DNA from: a virus
Direction: 5' to 3' (one strand)
Length of the DNA stretch: 64,000 nucleotides
Virus record (IMG/VR): IMGVR_UViG_3300045988_162434
Coordinates: 1-64,000 of that record
This document shows, one piece after another, positions 21,499-28,171 of the stretch; within the stretch, counting starts at the first letter, position 1; every line of letters starts with the position of its first letter. Position numbers and translations under genes: made by a program. The notes under the pieces were generated by a model that saw only the letters and a list, made by a program, of their open reading frames with translations, searched no databases and was not told where the DNA came from.

Positions 21499-21603
21499 AT
21501 AAAATGTAAAATTGAACTATTCCTTTATCGAACTTTGACCTCTGTTTTTCATTAAACTATTATTCATTAGTCGAATGCTTTAGCCATCTAAGCTACTCCC
21601 CAG

Positions 21604-21688
21604 CGCTGCACACAGGATTCGAACCTGCAAAGCCTTTCAGCTCAACCGATTTCAAGTCGGCTCCCTCACCACCCGGACATACAGCATA
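21604..21688 (-). tRNA. tRNA-Ser (anticodon UGA), type II
   Basis: Anticodon arm GCCGA-CTTGAAA-TCGGT, long variable arm, T-arm GCAGG-TTCGAAT-CCTGT, acceptor GCTGTAT/GTGCAGC with G-U pairs. Confidence 0.6.
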
Positions 21689-22176
21689 CATTTTAGAATC
21701 AAAAATTTTATTTTAATTTCCTTACTTAACGCCTAGACATTGTTAAGGGGTCTGCGTTGCCACTCCATCTTCCTTTATTTCCCTCATTCCATAAAAATAA
21801 AATTTTAATTCTTCAACTCGGTACTTTTCATCTTAACTCTTGATTACCCAAGTAGTAACCGATTTTAATTATATCGCCTAAGATAGCGGATTCAATATTT
21901 TGTTCTCAATCGTTGGTAATAGCGTATTGAGGCAGAGGTGACGAAATCTCCGCATCTACATGTAGTCATCATAGCAGATTAAATATTACACTTGTATTTT
22001 AGCAGTAATCGCATCATCCTGAGTACTAACACCCATTAAATAAGAGCCTACACTGTTGTGACGATGTCCGCAATTTGCATACGGCTTCTCTGGCTAGTGA
22101 GTTATTATCATACTCTACTTTCGTTTTTCAGCTCTTAATCTCTATTATTTTTAGTCATTTGAGATTAACAGACTAG

Positions 22177-22224
22177 CGCCAGCACTAGGATTCGAACCTA
22201 GATACCCAGATGGATAGAAAGCTT
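22177..22224 (-). tRNA. tRNA-Ser (anticodon GCU), 3' half of a split gene
   Basis: Contains anticodon-loop AA, anticodon stem GCTTT, a 16-nt variable arm, T-arm CTAGG-TTCGAAT-CCTAG, acceptor TGCTGGC plus G73. It pairs with the 5' half at 22924-22958. Confidence 0.55.
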
Positions 22225-22923
22225 GCTCTTAAAAGATTTTATTCCTCTTCTTTTTCTACTTTCCATACAAAACCATATGCGGTGTTGCGTTTTCCATTAG
22301 CTGCTTGGCTAATATGAGAACCACCACGTTCAACATTTATTGCTCTTGAGGCATCAGCATAACTAGAATATGTATTTAAATACTCACCATTTAAAGAATA
22401 TTGTTTTATTTTAATCACTTCTTTCTTAAAAAGAATTTTGTTTAAATTTTCTTTTTGTTCTTTTTGCTCTCTTTCATCATAAGAGATTTTTGAAAGAGTT
22501 TTTAAAAGCGTGTAATCAGATAATAAATCTCCAGTTTGATTACAAGAATTTTTTTTAAACAACAATTTTTTAGAGCTAATTCCACATTGACCAACAGGAA
22601 TTAAATAACATTGATTATTGTAATAAGTAGCAAAAACATCTATATCTTTTTCTGAATAAGAATGTTGAACACTACCTTGAGCAGATAAATGAGTACTTTT
22701 TGTATTAAATACAATTCCATTATTTTCCTCTCTGCAAGTTTTTACTTGCACTCTTAATAATTTACCTTCAATATCAGCAATAAAATCATATCGACAATCT
22801 TCAGATAAAGGAACTGATACATTATATCCTAATTGCGTAAAACTTATTTGACATTGAAGTTCTGTGGTAAGTCCTTTAATTTTTGTTTCTTGTAGCATAG
22901 AATGTATATAATATCTTTATTAG
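22225..22923 (-). mobile_element. Intervening sequence (about 699 nt) splitting tRNA-Ser(GCU) between anticodon-loop positions 36 and 37; encodes an endonuclease
   Basis: The flanking halves reconstitute a canonical type II tRNA (acceptor GCCAGTA/TGCTGGC, loop TTGCT|AA). The insert ends ...TTTTAAGAGC. Confidence 0.55.
22239..22898 (-). CDS. PD-(D/E)xK-type homing endonuclease with a C-terminal NUMOD4-like DNA-binding domain
   Basis: 219 aa. The N-terminus GLTTELQCQISFTQLGYNVSVPL...YDFIADIEGKLLRVQVK (D...E.K) is paralogous to ORF 25912-26340. The C-terminus GEYLNTYSSYADASRAINVERGGSHISQAANGKRNTAYGFVW matches the NUMOD4 pattern (..F.S..EAA......I...L.GK.K.A.GF.W). Confidence 0.6.
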   Translation of the reverse strand: MLQETKIKGLTTELQCQISFTQLGYNVSVPLSEDCRYDFIADIEGKLLRVQVKTCREENNGIVFNTKSTHLSAQGSVQHSYSEKDIDVFATYYNNQCYLIPVGQCGISSKKLLFKKNSCNQTGDLLSDYTLLKTLSKISYDEREQKEQKENLNKILFKKEVIKIKQYSLNGEYLNTYSSYADASRAINVERGGSHISQAANGKRNTAYGFVWKVEKEEE

Positions 22924-22958
22924 AGCAAGCTTTTGCGATACCCTTACGCCATACTGGC
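22924..22958 (-). tRNA. tRNA-Ser (GCU), 5' half of a split gene
   Basis: Acceptor GCCAGTA, a 3-bp D-stem GCG/CGC with loop TAAGGGTAT (Ser-like), and anticodon stem AAAGC followed by TTGCT. Confidence 0.55.
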
Positions 22959-22962
22959 AAAA

Positions 22963-23034
22963 AGCCCATAATGGGAATCGAACCCATATCAGCTATTTGG
23001 AAGACAGCTATGTTAGCCATTACACCACATGGAC
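22963..23034 (-). tRNA. tRNA-Gly (anticodon UCC)
   Basis: Anticodon arm GCTGT-CTTCCAA-ATAGC, T-arm ATGGG-TTCGATT-CCCAT, D-stem GTGT/ACAT. Confidence 0.6.
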
Positions 23035-23038
23035 TTAA

Positions 23039-23110
23039 TGCGCCGCACGGGAGTTGAACCCGCCTAGACACGATTAAAAGTCGTGTGCACAACCGATATG
23101 CCAACGGCGC
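23039..23110 (-). tRNA. tRNA-Lys (anticodon UUU)
   Basis: Acceptor GCGCCGT/GCGGCGC, anticodon arm CACGA-CTTTTAA-TCGTG, T-arm GCGGG-TTCAACT-CCCGT. Confidence 0.65.
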
Positions 23111-23151
23111 TAATAATTAAAGTAATCTACTACTGAGCTACAGACGCTTAA

Positions 23152-23224
23152 TTCTTCAGGTGGGATTTGAACCCAACAGTTTTGGTTCCGTAGACCAATG
23201 TTTTATCCATTAAACTACTGAAGA
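23152..23224 (-). tRNA. tRNA-Arg (anticodon ACG)
   Basis: Acceptor TCTTCAG/CTGAAGA, D-stem GTTT/AAAC, anticodon arm TTGGT-CTACGGA-ACCAA. Confidence 0.65.
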
Positions 23225-23225
23225 A

Positions 23226-23296
23226 TATGTGTATTAGGATTCGAACCTAAACTTAAAGTTTAAAACTCTTTTGTGCTACCTTTACACTATACACAT
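23226..23296 (-). tRNA. tRNA with ambiguous anticodon: UUU (Lys) or UUA (ochre-suppressor reading), depending on the fold
   Basis: Acceptor ATGTGTA/TACACAT is perfect, with T-arm TTAGG-TTCGAAT-CCTAA. The anticodon region AAAGAGTTTTAAACTTTAAG folds two ways. The first, AAAGA-GTTTTAA-ACTTT, gives UUU. The second, AAGAG-TTTTAAA-CTTTA, gives UUA. Confidence 0.45.
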
Positions 23297-23438
23297 CCTC
23301 AATTATGACTTTTTCTGTATAATTGAAATAATTTAATTTAACACGCGCGTTCTGTCTATTAGGTCATTACATTAAAGCAGTTCTATGGTTGAACTTTTAC
23401 CAGAATGGGATTCCAAACCCTCGACTTTTTTGTAATGA

Positions 23439-23509
23439 AGCATGAAGTTGGAGTCGAACCAACCTATGAGGTTTTGCAGACCTCCTCCTAGCCGCCCGGA
23501 CCTCCATGC
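23439..23509 (-). tRNA. tRNA-Cys (anticodon GCA)
   Basis: Acceptor GCATGGA/TTCATGC, anticodon arm GAGGT-CTGCAAA-ACCTC, T-arm GTTGG-TTCGACT-CCAAC. Confidence 0.65.
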
Positions 23510-23587
23510 AAAATATAAACTAGACACTGACATTTAATAATTGACTTCACTCTCAATTCTTTAATAATTATTGCTGTGTGTGTCTAA

Positions 23588-23663
23588 ACACTCCCGACAG
23601 GACTCGAACCTGCAACAAAAGTCTTAGAAGGACCTTGCTCTGATTCCATTTGAGCTACGAGAG
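23588..23663 (-). tRNA. tRNA-Arg (anticodon UCU)
   Basis: D-stem GCTC/GAGC, anticodon arm AGGTC-CTTCTAA-GACTT, T-arm GCAGG-TTCGAGT-CCTGT, acceptor ACTCTCG/CGGGAGT. Confidence 0.6.
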
Positions 23664-23667
23664 TAAA

Positions 23668-23740
23668 GTACGGGTGGTGAGATTCGAACTCACACTTGAC
23701 GAGGCTTAAACTCGTTGTCTCTGCCGTTGGACTACACCCG
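23668..23740 (-). tRNA. tRNA with anticodon UAA (Leu UUA-reading) but a short, type I variable arm
   Basis: Acceptor GCGGGTG/CACCCGT, anticodon arm ACGAG-TTTAAGC-CTCGT (perfect), 5-nt variable loop, T-arm GTGAG-TTCGAAT-CTCAC. Confidence 0.5.
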
Positions 23741-24035
23741 CTTATCAGGCTAGCTGCAGTGGTATCGGGGAATTGCACCCCGGTTTCCTCTTTATAAGGA
23801 AGGCGACTTATCTAGTTAGTCGAATACCCTAGCCTATAAAATGACAGTTCACTCTTCTGCCGATTCAACCAGTTTCTTGCTTTTCCTGTGCAAGGCTTAA
23901 TTAAATGCTTTATTCTAGGTATTGTCGCGACACGTCACTAGAAAGAGTGTTATAATAAAGTTAAGCACATAAAATTTTAAAGTTACAATCTAAATCATCT
24001 TCTTTAAAATTGCAAAATTGCTGTTTGTGCTCAAA

Positions 24036-24121
24036 TGGGCGGAGAGGGAATTGAACCCACTCGGGACATAAAGCCTCCGGTTTTACAGACCGGTGTGTCT
24101 ACCTTATCACGCTACCCGCCC
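24036..24121 (-). tRNA. tRNA-Tyr (anticodon GUA), type II
   Basis: Acceptor GGGCGGG/TCCGCCC, anticodon arm CCGGT-CTGTAAA-ACCGG, long variable arm, T-loop TTCAATT. Confidence 0.6.
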
Positions 24122-24128
24122 TTAATAT

Positions 24129-24497
24129 CTATTTGTTTGCCCAATTAACAAGGACTTCATGGCTATTGCATAAATCTTCAAAAACTTTATCACTTACAAG
24201 AAAATTTCCTTGTGAAAATCCAGCTTCATCTAAACCAAGATTTGTACGAAATCCATCAATATAAATACCAGATAAAATACCATCATTATCAGTAATACAT
24301 CCATTACGAACATAATCAAGAAATTCTTTGCCTGATAACAAATCATAAGCTGGATGTATAAAAATATCAGCAATAGCTTCTTGAAAAACAGGTGAAACAG
24401 TTTTGACCATATCATCTATTGTAGTTATTTGATATACAAGCTCATAATTATTATCTAATTTAAAAAACATAAATCCTTTACTTTTATACTCATTCAT
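24129..24497 (-). CDS. hypothetical protein embedded in the tRNA array
   Basis: 122-aa ORF with no recognisable motif. Confidence 0.3.
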   Translation of the reverse strand: MNEYKSKGFMFFKLDNNYELVYQITTIDDMVKTVSPVFQEAIADIFIHPAYDLLSGKEFLDYVRNGCITDNDGILSGIYIDGFRTNLGLDEAGFSQGNFLVSDKVFEDLCNSHEVLVNWANK

Positions 24498-24578
24498 ATT
24501 ATCAATTCCTTTCTTAACTTTCTATAAATATTATAGCAAAAATATTTATAAAAATCAATTTGATATTTAAAGCGGCAA

Positions 24579-24600
24579 CCGGTTTGAGATCTCAAACCGG
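24579..24600. repeat. perfect 22-bp palindrome CCGGTTTGAGATCTCAAACCGG
   Basis: Read directly from the sequence; located between ORF 24129-24497 and tRNA-Met. Confidence 0.8.
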
Positions 24601-24698
24601 GCAACCGCGTTGCAAAGAAAGGTTTTATATGAACCAAGTTTTTAACAGAACTTGGAAAACTGGGAAAGGAAGGAAGGTCAATCATGAATCTGACCTAA

Positions 24699-24769
24699 TG
24701 GCGGAAGCAGGACTCGAACCTGCGTCTCTAGCCTATGAAGCTAGCAAGGAACCACTCCTCTATTCCGCG
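24699..24769 (-). tRNA. tRNA-Met/Ile2 (anticodon CAU)
   Basis: D-stem GAGG/CCTT, anticodon arm CTAGC-TTCATAG-GCTAG, T-arm GCAGG-TTCGAGT-CCTGC, acceptor CGCGGAA/TTCCGCC with a 1-72 mismatch. Confidence 0.55.
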
Positions 24770-25402
24770 ATATTTAATATTCTCAATAAAAACAAAATAG
24801 AATAGTCCTTCGACTTACTATAACATATCTTCAAAATTATTACTCTACATAGGAGATAGAGGCTGAGCAAGGCTAGCTAATTCCTTACTTCTCTACCCCA
24901 GCATAATTGCCATATCTATGACAGGATTGACTACCTGCACCTTTCACTTAAACCATTCAGCATATACTTTTATAATTAAGAATTTTCCTCATTCTTTAAT
25001 TCAAATTATCAACTACTTTGCATTAAGCTACTTAGAGTTGCATACAGTTCTTATATCAACATTTCTGTTGTTTCATTGCAAAACGGATTATTGGTATTTC
25101 CTAGGATTGCTACTGGGTACCACCCCGATTTAGCCTAACTAGGAGAGGGAGTGATTAAACTCCTTTTTATTGTTCCGCCGAACCGCATCCTGAGCTATTT
25201 TGCGATATATCTAGTGCCATGACTTTACTTTGGGTTTCCAACCTCTTCATTTCAGTATCACTACTTTCAATGCGGACCACTATCCACAAGTATCCTTGTT
25301 TCGTTCGTGCCGAGCTCTTTTCGCCATGCCTTAGCTGTGTGGTTAGTACATCTGCACTAAGATATTCATTTTTGTTTTTACTGAGAATATTAAATTTTTA
25401 AA

Positions 25403-25475
25403 TGCTGCCCCTAGGAGTCGAACCCAGTGTCATCGGATATAAGCCGATTCCCCAAAACCGTCGAGGACAAGCAGC
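25403..25475 (-). tRNA. tRNA-Ile (anticodon UAU, AUA-reading)
   Basis: Acceptor GCTGCTT/GGGCAGC, D-stem CCTC/GGGG, anticodon arm ATCGG-CTTATAT-CCGAT (perfect), T-arm CTGGG-TTCGACT-CCTAG. Confidence 0.55.
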
Positions 25476-25865
25476 TAGTTGCATTACTGCTCCATTACGC
25501 GCACCTGTCTACGCAACTTCCGCAGTACACCTGGACACTTGATATTCTTAGGATTTTCTTCAAGTGTTGCCAATCTATTCTTTAAAATTGCTAATTTCTG
25601 TTCTCTTGTCATAATATCCAATCCCTTTCTATTGTTATATAATAGATCCAATCCTGCTGGTTATTAGCAAGTAAACCTCGTTTACAAACCAGCTGGATCT
25701 ATACCACATTTTAGACAGTAGCCGACTGTACGCTTTACCACTCACGTATCTAGGAGAATTTTGTCTTTTGCTTTCAATCTAACAAAACAATTCTAAAACC
25801 AAAACAACTTTGCTTACTGTTTAAGTTGAATCAGAGGCTAATTTGATTAACTTGCATATAAGTAG

Positions 25866-25903
25866 CGGTTCTAGCGGGGCTCGAACCCGCGTTATTCTCC
25901 CGT
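25866..25903 (-). tRNA. tRNA-Asp (anticodon GUC), 3' half of a split gene
   Basis: Anticodon-loop AC, anticodon stem GGGAG, T-arm GCGGG-TTCGAGC-CCCGC, acceptor TAGAACC plus G73. Confidence 0.6.
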
Positions 25904-26389
25904 GACTTAAATCATAAGTTCAATAAAACTTTCTCAGCAATAAAATCTTCTGCAAATTTTTGAGTTGACATTTTAGGTTTTTTTAACCAAAATTTTGTTT
26001 CTGTAGTTCCAAAAATAGGAAAAATATAAAAATTTTTATTATATTCTGTCATAAAATAGTCACAATCATTTTTAGTATATTTTTCATGTTTTACTCTCTG
26101 AGATTTAGAAATATCTCTAACCTCATAGCGTGTTTTCACTAAAAAACTTCGACCATTATCTTGCATACTTGCATGTTTTACTTGAATTCTAGTAAACTTT
26201 CCATTTTTCTCAATAACCAAGTCATATTTTTGATGATTTCCCATGGGAATTAAAACATTATACCCTTGTTCAATTAGAAAAAGCTGACATTGCATTTCTG
26301 TTATAAGTCCAATTTGAGAAGGATTCATTTCTATTTTCATAAATAACTCTCCTTTCTCTAAGAAAGTTTTACTATTGCTTATTTTTCAA
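25904..26389 (-). mobile_element. Intervening sequence (486 nt) splitting tRNA-Asp(GUC) between anticodon-loop positions 36 and 37; almost entirely an endonuclease ORF
   Basis: The halves give a perfect 7-bp acceptor (GGTTCTA/TAGAACC), a perfect 5-bp anticodon stem (CTCCC/GGGAG) and the canonical Asp loop CUGUC|AC. The insert ends ...GATTTAAGTC, resembling the Ser insert end TTTTAAGAGC. Confidence 0.6.
25912..26340 (-). CDS. PD-(D/E)xK-type homing endonuclease
   Basis: 142 aa. GLITEMQCQLFLIEQGYNVLIPMGNHQKYDLVIEKNGKFTRIQVK (D..E.K) is paralogous to the N-terminal domain of ORF 22239-22898. An RBS GGAGAG precedes the ATG. Confidence 0.55.
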   Translation of the reverse strand: MKIEMNPSQIGLITEMQCQLFLIEQGYNVLIPMGNHQKYDLVIEKNGKFTRIQVKHASMQDNGRSFLVKTRYEVRDISKSQRVKHEKYTKNDCDYFMTEYNKNFYIFPIFGTTETKFWLKKPKMSTQKFAEDFIAEKVLLNL

Positions 26390-26426
26390 GACAGGGGAGT
26401 ACCATATCCAGCTAGGCGATAGAACC
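26390..26426 (-). tRNA. tRNA-Asp (GUC), 5' half of a split gene
   Basis: GGTTCTA-TC-GCC..(D-loop with GG)..GGT-A-CTCCC-CTGTC. Confidence 0.6.
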
Positions 26427-26623
26427 ATAAAAATAGCAATGGAGCGCTCAAGTTTGATGAAACGAACTATTTCTCTACATCGACCATCATTAAGTTACAT
26501 TGCTAAATTCATCTATCATATAAATAGATATAGTCCGTGTACTTAGGACTGCCATTTACTTCACATTCTAAATGGTCAAAACGCAACCGAGGCTTCTGGC
26601 GCGACCAGCGTGCTGTCGGTTAA

Positions 26624-26696
26624 TAGCTATAATTGGATTTGAACCAATAACCTTTCCCGTATGAAGAGAATGCTCTACCGATTAAGCTATATAGCT
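26624..26696 (-). tRNA. tRNA-Met (anticodon CAU), second copy
   Basis: Acceptor AGCTATA/TATAGCT perfect, D-stem GCTT/GAGC, anticodon arm TTCTC-TTCATAC-GGGAA, T-arm ATTGG-TTCAAAT-CCAAT. Confidence 0.6.
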
Positions 26697-26700
26697 AAAA

Positions 26701-26773
26701 GGTGACGTGTGGGATTTGAACCCACGACGTTCGGATCCACAATCCGACGTTCTACCAACTGAACTAACGCCAC
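26701..26773 (-). tRNA. tRNA-His (anticodon GUG) with no genomically encoded G-1
   Basis: Acceptor GTGGCGT/ACGTCAC, anticodon arm TCGGA-TTGTGGA-TCCGA, T-arm GTGGG-TTCAAAT-CCCAC. The base at position -1 is T, not G. Confidence 0.65.
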
Positions 26774-26775
26774 AG

Positions 26776-26849
26776 TGATCCCGGCGGGACTCGAACCCAA
26801 GCATCTCGACCTTGAAAGGGTCGTGTCCTTACCTTTAGACGACGGGACC
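26776..26849 (-). tRNA. tRNA-Glu (anticodon UUC)
   Basis: Acceptor GGTCCCG/CGGGATC, D-stem GTCT/GGAC, anticodon arm CGACC-CTTTCAA-GGTCG (perfect). Confidence 0.6.
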
Positions 26850-26852
26850 AGA

Positions 26853-26925
26853 TGACTCCAGATAGATTCGAACTATCATCCCCTGACTGAGAATCAGGAA
26901 TCCTGAACCATTAGACGATGGAGCC
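26853..26925 (-). tRNA. tRNA-Glu (anticodon CUC)
   Basis: Acceptor GGCTCCA/TGGAGTC, anticodon arm CCTGA-TTCTCAG-TCAGG (perfect), T-arm GATAG-TTCGAAT-CTATC. Confidence 0.5.
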
Positions 26926-27052
26926 TTGAATTAGGAATTTTGACAAGATTCCTTTAACTTGGAGTCCTTATCATCCTCGAACTCTAGGAGGTTTTTGTTA
27001 CTTTTTATTAACGAGAGTTAGAACAAATTTTCCTTTCGCAGTTTCTCTCAAA

Positions 27053-27124
27053 TGGGCTGTACTGGATTCGAACCAATGCGCACCGGGCTTCAACCGGTTG
27101 CTCTTCCAACTGAGCTAACAGCCC
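27053..27124 (-). tRNA. tRNA-Phe (anticodon GAA)
   Basis: Acceptor GGGCTGT/ACAGCCC, D-arm GCTC-AGTTGGAA-GAGC, anticodon arm ACCGG-TTGAAGC-CCGGT, T-arm ATTGG-TTCGAAT-CCAGT. Confidence 0.7.
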
Positions 27125-27394
27125 TCTTTAAAGTGATCAAAATCACTTTCCATAATTACATCTCCTTTTCATTTACTATAATAATTATATCAAAATTTTT
27201 TATGAAAATCAATTAAATTGCTTTTTCTATGTATCCAAGAAGCATAACTTAGAACACATAAGGTGAGCTAGTCACGTCAACTCCACATATCTCAATCTAA
27301 CGGCATATCTTAGACATCTTTATTCATCATTTTCGTATGATAGGAGTGAGGAAAAGCTATGCTCAGCAATCTCTCCTATAACGTCTTGATACTT

Positions 27395-27477
27395 ATACCC
27401 TCAAGCTAGGGTGAGGCGGCATCGAAAGACTCGAACTTTCAACCTTCCTTTCATACGGTTATGCTACCATTACACCA
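27395..27477 (-). pseudogene. degenerate tRNA-like element
   Basis: Good T-arm GAAAG-TTCGAGT-CTTTC and a pairable acceptor (CGGCATT/GATGCCG), but no anticodon stem-loop with a 7-nt loop could be folded. Confidence 0.3.
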
Positions 27478-27589
27478 ATGCCGCAAATGCACTTATTGCA
27501 GTAAGTACATCGAGTTATTTTGGCTTTTTCGTATAATATACTGCAATATACCATTAACTAATATCAACCAAACAAGTCCTTCAGTTGGC

Positions 27590-27640
27590 ACACCATGCGC
27601 TAGTAGGAGGGAATCGAACCCTAGCAACCTTCTCTTATAA
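27590..27640 (-). pseudogene. tRNA 3'-fragment-like element (T-arm only)
   Basis: The sequence GGAGGGAATCGAACCCTAG is the reverse complement of a T-arm. No complementary 5' acceptor was found nearby. Confidence 0.25.
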
Positions 27641-27799
27641 CTCTACCAAACTCCTCGTCGTTGGCAGACCACACTTACTTTTACACCAGAGGTTTAGTGA
27701 TGCCCCTCTATCATCAATGGCTAACTTTGTTTTTACATCGGAAGGTTCCGCCGCACCCACCATCAATACTCATTAACAGTAAAACCTGTTTAGAGTAAG

Positions 27800-27872
27800 C
27801 TCCCACAGCAGGGCTCGAACCTGCGACAGGCAGATTAACAATCTGCAACTCTACCAACTGAGCTATGTGGGA
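27800..27872 (-). tRNA. tRNA-Asn (anticodon GUU)
   Basis: Acceptor TCCCACA/TGTGGGA perfect, D-arm GCTC-AGTTGGTA-GAGT, anticodon arm GCAGA-TTGTTAA-TCTGC, T-arm GCAGG-TTCGAGC-CCTGC. Confidence 0.7.
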
Positions 27873-28099
27873 ATATTAAAGAGAGCAACCTCGAAGGGAA
27901 AATCTAGGAAGATTTCACACTCTCACGCGATAATTATTTCTCAGATTTTTTATATAGGCGATCACTGAGAAAAGAACAAATTATCAACGATTTTTATTTT
28001 TCGCCCTCTAAAAGACCGCGATTTGTTACTACAACTTATTGTCGCTTTTGCCCAGATAGGTTAGTAAGTTGCCACTACGCACATCCTATCAAACGTTAA

Positions 28100-28171
28100 T
28101 TCCGATTATGTGAATCGAACACATATTACCGGGTTACAAAGCCGGGGTTCTAGCCTTTGAACTAAATCGGA
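28100..28171 (-). tRNA. tRNA-Thr (anticodon UGU)
   Basis: Acceptor TCCGATT/AATCGGA perfect, D-stem GTTC/GAAC, anticodon loop TTTGTAA flanked by CCGG/CCGG, T-arm ATGTG-TTCGATT-CACAT. Confidence 0.6.

Follow-up and report, generated by a model that had tools for sequence, protein, structure and literature searches.

A phage genome with a bacterial-type Thg1-like protein and a tRNA-His gene that lacks an encoded G-1: a plausible pairing

The 64-kb window (the whole stretch of phage DNA analysed here, 64,000 nucleotides) holds a tRNA-His gene without an encoded G-1 and, 27.9 kb apart from it, a gene that its sequence identifies as an intact bacterial-type Thg1-like protein (TLP) with all of the catalytic residues present. 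We regard the two as a plausible pairing and not as a new system. The TLP is best read as a tRNA-end maintenance enzyme that probably completes the phage tRNA-His as well, and the most defensible assignment counts it among the accessory genes with which large gut phages, probably infecting Firmicutes, maintain tRNA ends. Whether the enzyme adds G-1 to the phage's own tRNA-His in vivo is, in our judgement, evenly balanced between yes and no.

The window has a GC content of 33% and carries 21 tRNA genes, a sigma-like factor and phage structural and packaging genes; no near-identical DNA match to it was found among GenBank phages. Most of the tRNA genes lie in a single array on the minus strand, and all 18 genes of this array, including tRNA-His, are without an encoded CCA. 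The features needed to follow the tRNA-His gene and its surroundings are:

21603-28171, minus strand, array of 18 tRNA genes including tRNA-His (ARAGORN, Rfam)
26701-26773, minus strand, tRNA-His(GTG) (ARAGORN; Rfam tRNA, 69.4 bits, E=5.9e-14)
26774-26775, minus strand, 2-nt spacer 5'-C,U-3' between tRNA-Glu and tRNA-His (sequence)
26776-26849, minus strand, tRNA-Glu(ttc), directly upstream of tRNA-His and forming the 5' leader of pre-tRNA-His (ARAGORN, Rfam)
58679-60418, large terminase subunit
60913-62514, portal protein

With its score of 69.4 bits, tRNA-His was one of the top two tRNAs in the scanned 21-29 kb region. Read 5' to 3', its acceptor stem consists of GTGGCGT paired with ACGTCAC (7 bp, G1-C72), with G+1 at position 26773 and the discriminator base C73 at position 26701. 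The -1 base is T (26774) and the -2 base is C. Of the canonical bacterial tRNA-His traits, the GUG anticodon and C73 are therefore present, and a genome-encoded G-1 pairing with C73 is absent, in agreement with the original prediction that this gene lacks an encoded G-1. Re-folding the tRNA one nucleotide further upstream yielded no G-1, and a hidden G-1 produced by a shift of register was ruled out, since the register is set by U8, the D-arm and the T-stem of 5 bp. The same 73-nt gene was found, without a single difference, in the independent contig IMGVR 3300045988_151163, where T again occupies -1 and the upstream neighbour differs from that of the window.

The TLP gene stands at the head of a series of small minus-strand genes, divergent from the sigma/terminase/portal block. 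Its position and those of its two direct neighbours are as follows:

54402-54653, minus strand, P-loop-like ORF, 83 aa, downstream of the TLP and translationally coupled to it (sequence, family searches)
54655-55545, minus strand, Thg1-like protein (TLP), 296 aa, BtTLP type (Pfam, PDB matches, alignment)
55548-55805, minus strand, acidic ORF, 85 aa, directly upstream of the TLP (homologue search across TLP loci)

The membership of this ORF in the Thg1 family, as first proposed, was confirmed by a match to Pfam Thg1 (PF04446, E=1.1e-30; cut-off 29.2 bits) and by phmmer searches of the PDB, in which the closest solved relative was the Bacillus thuringiensis protein BtTLP (4KGK, E=6.5e-53), followed by archaeal MaTLP (5AXK, 5e-13) and human THG1 (3OTB, E=1.9e-8). 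A profile of 11 phage TLPs matched 4KGK over its whole length (E=1.6e-94) and 3OTB at E=3.3e-17. The Pfam Thg1C match was under the cut-off (E=0.0049), the profile alignment to BtTLP covered chain residues 2-239, and NCBIfam returned no match. The signature motifs read RLDGRAFH (residues 32-39), QSDE (77-80) and WRQLD (178-182); the first and last had been quoted correctly before, and the supposed GQSDE is in fact GYTQSDE. When the catalytic carboxylates of Thg1 were looked for by alignment, D34, D79 and E80 were found at the metal-binding positions D29, D76 and E77 of hTHG1. D79 corresponds to BtTLP D75, a metal ligand whose replacement in the D75A mutant dramatically lowers activity (PMC3701042). 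In HMMER alignments to 3OTB and 4KGK, the residues R32, K47 and S78 correspond to R27, K44 and S75 of hTHG1, which take part in activation and NTP binding, and their columns are conserved at 90% or more in the phage TLP alignment. Since the region that reads HINNLYN in the eukaryotic enzymes reads WRQLDAMRNS in the phage protein, as in BtTLP, we consider the protein a TLP and not a eukaryotic-type Thg1. Compared with BtTLP, it has an internal insert of ~33 aa (residues ~125-157) and a C-terminal insertion, both of which are common to its close phage relatives.

The reaction proposed for this enzyme is chemically well founded, since BtTLP, the closest characterised homologue, adds a templated G-1 opposite C73 efficiently; by analogy, this upholds the addition chemistry that was originally suggested. 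On C73-tRNA-His, BtTLP adds G-1 with a kcat/KM of 5500 M-1 s-1, equal to that of yeast Thg1, and does so ~50-fold better opposite C73 than opposite A73, after activating the 5'-monophosphate end with ATP or GTP (PMC3061083). It favours 5'-truncated tRNAs 5-160-fold over -1 addition and shows no anticodon dependence. It also adds several G residues on C73-CCA ends, so a clean G-1 may not result. The likeness of the phage protein to BtTLP (4KGK/4KGM) extends to full-length homology, the metal carboxylates, K43/K47 and the WRQxDAxxNS motif. On this basis the phage TLP would polymerise RNA in the 3'-5' direction, lengthening tRNA 5' ends along the 3' acceptor strand, which serves as template, with an expected activity that includes both G-1 addition opposite C73 and repair of truncated tRNAs. 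The two differ in that BtTLP is a bacterial protein without the phage insertions and its host encodes G-1, so that it has no obvious tRNA-His substrate, whereas the phage genome carries a G-1-less C73 tRNA-His.

Two further comparisons are instructive. In Dictyostelium, mitochondrial tRNA-His receives its G-1 opposite C73 from TLP2 (PMC6471195), and as in our proposal a TLP, not a eukaryotic Thg1, makes the templated addition to a tRNA-His of bacterial type that has C73 and no encoded G-1; it differs in being eukaryotic and organellar with a demonstrated role, while the phage role is deduced and, by comparison, phage TLPs have no fixed link to tRNA-His. Eukaryotic Thg1 (yeast, human THG1) shares the fold, the catalytic residues and the arrangement of a G-1-less tRNA-His gene with later addition. 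It adds a non-templated G opposite A73 and reads the GUG anticodon through HINNLYN, a motif that is absent from the phage TLP.

The anatomy of the genes, their family assignment, the conservation of the catalytic residues and the distribution among phages are direct observations of this study, and the pathway that they suggest would run as follows. The tRNA array would be transcribed as a polycistron, and host RNase P would be expected to cut pre-tRNA-His at +1, leaving 5'-p-G+1. RNase P site choice on pre-tRNA-His is established knowledge, summarised in PMC5499578, and because U-1 cannot pair with C73 the bacterial enzyme should cut at +1 and leave a 5'-monophosphate substrate. Following trimming of the 3' end and addition of CCA, the TLP would activate the 5' phosphate with ATP or GTP and presumably add one GTP opposite C73 in the infected cell. 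The resulting G-1:C73 pair would be the element read by bacterial HisRS; charging by the E. coli enzyme drops >100-fold without G-1 (PMC5499578), and we extrapolate the need of the phage's host for G-1 from those data. As the host is itself only a probable one, the requirement of its HisRS for G-1 is no firmer than that. The same TLP could rebuild 5'-truncated tRNAs of any identity, and it is probably this wider capacity, more than the maturation of tRNA-His, that keeps TLPs in phages. A phage with a BtTLP-type enzyme and a G-1-less C73 tRNA-His offers a simple natural test system for the role of bacterial-type TLPs in vivo. A more speculative and, we think, unlikely extension is that the phage tRNA-His is not charged before the phage's TLP has supplied the G-1 opposite C73, which would give the phage a switch on histidine decoding and would be the first natural case from the bacterial world of a TLP establishing tRNA-His identity; the G-1-less tRNA-His of other arrays (~40%) would then depend on a TLP or, in TLP-less phages, on another mechanism that adds or bypasses G-1.

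In order to place the gene among phage tRNA-His genes, a generic tRNA-His pattern scan of IMG/VR was used, which yielded 98 genes, and loci with at least 5 tRNAs were treated as phage arrays. Among the 62 tRNA-His genes in such arrays, 36 had the canonical G-1/C73 and 26 (42%) did not; the latter comprised 17 with U-1/C73 (27% of 62), four with G/A, three with C/A, one with U/A and one with U/U at positions -1/73. Loci below this limit of 5 tRNAs are mostly host-like; of their 36 tRNA-His genes, 34 were canonical. The description of a G-1-less phage tRNA-His as unusual can thus not be maintained. T is the usual leader base of phage tRNAs at -1, being found there in 71% of 722 non-His phage tRNAs, with G in 4%. 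In addition, U-1/C73 tRNA-His genes with an encoded CCA occur in Klebsiella phage KPV15 (T4-like), Serratia phage ChuuTotoro and Cronobacter phage CR3, the groups concerned being T4-like (Jiaodavirus) and rV5-like (Vequintavirinae) enterobacterial phages, and, judged by alignment starts, U-1/C73 is present in nearly all of the top 60 enterobacterial phage matches. These observations come from the IMG/VR loci L097-L216 together with NC_055715.1 81067-81139, ON287369.1 31122-31197 and NC_017974.1 147356-147428. Our literature search found no description or explanation of frequent G-1-less tRNA-His in phage arrays. This frequency bears on how phage tRNAs are charged and may be the more interesting lead.

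The enterobacterial genera Klebsiella, Serratia and Cronobacter were absent among the ten genera listed in our tally of TLP-carrying organisms, and we take their U-1/C73 phages to be TLP-less because Klebsiella alone would have ranked high in that tally if they carried one. Since U-1/C73 is common in TLP-less phages, a phage tRNA-His can persist without any known G-1-adding enzyme. The phage tRNA-His might work, or be tolerated, without G-1, either weakly charged, charged by a tolerant host HisRS or serving another role such as that of a decoy, while the TLP would act mainly on host tRNA-His or on non-tRNA RNAs. The share of U-1/C73 among array tRNA-His genes, many of them in TLP-less phages, speaks for this explanation, and so does the fact that many TLP phages infect alphaproteobacteria (Caulobacter, Brevundimonas, Rhizobium, Phaeobacter), some of which use tRNA-His without G-1. 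The known G-1-independent systems have A73, however, whereas C73 is kept here, the probable hosts are gut Firmicutes and not alphaproteobacteria, and the >100-fold loss seen with E. coli HisRS argues against tolerance. We therefore hold this explanation to be quite improbable.

Whether TLPs go together with G-1-less tRNA-His genes was assessed in seven independent TLP-carrying lineages with a readable tRNA-His, in which the -1/73 bases were:

This window and contig 151163: T/C
L299 group: T/C
L057/L064: T/A
Bacillus phage Bc431v3 group: C/A (with C1-G72)
Fusobacterium phage Fnu1: G/A
L301: G/C
L305: G/C

Non-canonical tRNA-His was thus found in five of seven TLP-carrying lineages versus 26 of 62 in the background, a difference that is not significant (Fisher two-sided p=0.23). 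Three of the seven (L057/L064, Fnu1 and Bc431v3) have A73, which counts against a pairing because a BtTLP-type enzyme adds G poorly opposite A73, and L301 and L305 encode the canonical G-1:C73. Among the lineages read, TLP and U-1/C73 were combined only in that of the window and in the L299 group (L299, L307, L313, L314, L317), an independent gut-phage lineage whose TLP is 45% identical to the window's and whose unrelated U-1/C73 tRNA-His lies ~9.6 kb from the TLP gene; this second case speaks for a pairing. In the relative 142128 (L222), the TLP is 80% identical and the tRNA array is syntenic, and tRNA-His is absent from that array; Vibrio phage vB_CoeS_P1 carries a TLP and lacks tRNA genes altogether, and an M. 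phlei prophage has a TLP with tRNAs only for Asn, Gln and Trp. In the 80 closest TLP contigs, tRNA-His was in range of the TLP only in L057 and L064, the tRNA arrays being >10 kb away, and the use of a neighbouring protein as an anchor for tRNA-His retrieval covered 2 contigs only. Conversely, no TLP gene was in range at the 136 tRNA-His loci obtained from pattern scans, and no tRNAs were found in Bc431v3 46-96 kb, PMBT8 38-88 kb or Vibrio phage 1.170.O 83-133 kb. Consistent co-occurrence of TLP and G-1-less tRNA-His across relatives fails, and the notion of a specific pairing has to be given up: U-1/C73 occurs without a TLP (KPV15, CR3, ChuuTotoro) and TLPs occur without tRNA-His (L222, vB_CoeS_P1, the M. 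phlei prophage). By this comparative evidence, maturing tRNA-His is not the dedicated task of phage TLPs, and a phage tRNA-His gene without G-1 does not depend on a TLP for its persistence.

The tRNA-His of Bc431v3 (L225:102-175; NC_020873.1 156701-156774) has C1-G72, A73 and C at -1, features that were read in Bc431v3 only. Similar tRNA-His genes occur in ~35 Bacillus phage records, including Tsamsa-like siphoviruses, with full-length conservation only within the Bc431v3 group.

Phage TLPs themselves are widespread and already annotated, contrary to the view that such a gene is unusual in a phage. By tblastn, TLP homologues were found in 164 GenBank phage records at 25-54% identity, the largest groups being Bacillus (46), Prevotella/Lak (15), Caulobacter (13) and Mycobacterium (11) phages; the closest isolated phage was Fusobacterium phage Fnu1 (44.6%), and an unannotated 4.2-kb fecal 'Bacteriophage sp.' record matched at 54.2%. 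IMG/VR contained 190 close relatives and >600 stretches that match two catalytic motifs, and a protein database search gave at least 8000 matches. Most of the GenBank phage TLPs carry the annotation 'tRNA-His guanylyltransferase'; those of Bc431v3 (gp143), Fnu1 (gp147), Pseudomonas phage 201phi2-1 and jumbo phages belong to the same family as the window's protein and are mostly accessory genes of large, tRNA-rich phages. They differ in the accompanying tRNA-His, which is G-1/A73 in Fnu1, C-1/A73 with C1-G72 in Bc431v3 and missing in some. Phage TLPs were noted in 2010, 2013 and 2021, with their role left between tRNA-His maturation and repair (PMC2904730, PMC7824862). In a GTDB scan, relatives of the TLP with 45-61% identity turned up in two isolates and on contigs of 100-180 kb that had been binned with MAGs of Clostridia, Lachnospiraceae and Ruminococcus. 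The host of the phage is probably a gut Firmicute, with which the CCA-less tRNA genes are consistent.

The genes around TLPs in other phages fit a general role in tRNA-end maintenance. Roughly a quarter of the loci or more have RlaP, CCA-adding or kinase/phosphatase/RNA-ligase genes no further than 10 kb from the TLP: 19-39 of an initial 80, the range reflecting alternative counts of a kinase-like cluster, and 22 of another 88. The recurrent neighbours are RlaP nucleotidyltransferases, CCA-adding enzymes, AAA_33 kinases and a trifunctional protein with AAA_33 kinase, Metallophos and T4-type RNA ligase domains. On the 854,779-bp contig k141_151512 (ENA ERZ27259514; L226:10001-15582), TLP, RlaP, HNH and CCA-enzyme genes stand in a row; further clusters of TLP and repair genes lie at L060:3866-6094 and L024:11879-12922, and the TLP of Vibrio phage 1.170.O has a COG0617 gene at a distance of 1.3 kb. 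Together, TLP, RlaP, CCA-adding enzyme and trifunctional protein would form a toolkit for repair of the tRNA acceptor end in related phages.

These neighbourhoods bring up the explanation that the TLP does repair only, acting as a polymerase for general repair or quality control of 5' ends, be they of tRNAs from host and phage or of other RNAs. It would counter RNA damage or defence nucleases together with kinase/phosphatase/ligase proteins, RlaP and a CCA-adding enzyme. The missing G-1 would then be unrelated to it and would represent a common state of phage-array tRNA-His genes. Such a role has already been proposed (PMC2904730, PMC7824862), and it accords with the TLPs of phages without tRNA-His or without any tRNAs, with the recurrence of tRNA-end and RNA-repair genes near TLPs (including the COG0617 gene of Vibrio phage 1.170.O), with the preference of BtTLP for truncated tRNAs irrespective of anticodon, and with the frequency of U-1/C73 tRNA-His in TLP-less phages. 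Nevertheless, our literature search found no anti-phage nuclease that removes 5'-terminal nucleotides of tRNAs, the 64-kb window contains no homologue of RNA ligase, polynucleotide kinase, RlaP or CCA-adding genes, and the phage tRNA-His would in any case be a substrate of an enzyme capable of G addition opposite C73 once the two met in one cell. Repair alone is therefore possible, if rather unlikely, and we prefer the reading in which a tRNA-end maintenance enzyme completes tRNA-His as well. A retron effector had also been considered as a candidate for trimming tRNA 5' ends and was dropped, since the papers on Septu/retron PtuAB report variable-loop cleavage instead.

The recurrent types of TLP neighbour are all absent from the window. 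The small Walker-A ORF that was first noted downstream of the TLP does exist: its likely start is the ATG at 54653, its Shine-Dalgarno sequence GAGGAGG sits inside the 3' end of the TLP gene, and it has Walker A (GSGKT) and Walker B (VCVDE) motifs. It is not a conserved partner of the TLP, since homologues were found in 6 of 80 related loci and just one of the six is located directly downstream of the TLP as in the window. The same rarity, the length of 83-88 aa and the weak family matches (Viral_helicase1, E=9e-4; phrog_1828, E=3.8e-5) led us to reject it as a polynucleotide-kinase-like partner. As for the acidic ORF upstream, an acidic domain of ~75 aa without any family match adjoins the TLP on the same strand, upstream or downstream, in ~20 of 196 loci (examples elsewhere are L048:10801-11319 and L001:9735-9998), and it is possibly a lineage-specific partner protein of TLPs.

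Another function known for TLPs is 5' editing as carried out on mitochondrial tRNAs by Dictyostelium TLP3, and by this precedent the phage TLP might rebuild the acceptor stems of phage tRNAs that are encoded with 5' mismatches. A survey of acceptor stems showed paired 7-bp stems in all 21 window tRNAs, and the sole 1:72 mismatch was in the initiator-like tRNA-Met (C1/C72), where a mismatch is the norm. With no suitable mismatches to act on, editing of this kind was ruled out as extremely improbable.

Besides tRNA genes, the array contains a ROOL RNA and two homing-endonuclease-like ORFs. The ROOL RNA is full-length (24785-25385, minus strand; RF03087, 275 bits, E=8.6e-63) and lies between tRNA-Met and tRNA-Ile(tat). 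Both ORFs (22239-22898 and 25912-26340, minus strand) belong to the PD-(D/E)XK_5 endonucleases, one of them with NUMOD1; they are probably homing endonucleases that reshuffle the array, and the tRNA content around them varies between relatives. A well-formed tRNA with the anticodon TTA (23226-23296, minus strand; Rfam tRNA, 61 bits) would read the UAA stop codon. It is kept in the relative 151163 (L221:17375), and in the relative 142128 the matching part of the array carries, in its place, a tRNA with the anticodon CTA, which would read amber (L222:16338). Stop-codon recoding by the TTA-anticodon tRNA was considered and set aside, as a comparison of ORF lengths in the window gave no signal. 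A weak tRNA-like Rfam match at 23761-23828 (minus strand, 32.3 bits), where ARAGORN makes no call, may be a degenerate array tRNA. Outside the array, three adjacent minus-strand genes at 1331-6593 adjoin tRNA-Gln and tRNA-Pro (7366-7596). One product (830 aa) has Major Vault Protein shoulder/repeat domains, another (236 aa) is a metallophosphoesterase, and the remaining one (486 aa) combines DUF2828 and DUF7788 (phrog_850, 'RNA-binding protein'); the set may represent an RNA-handling module.
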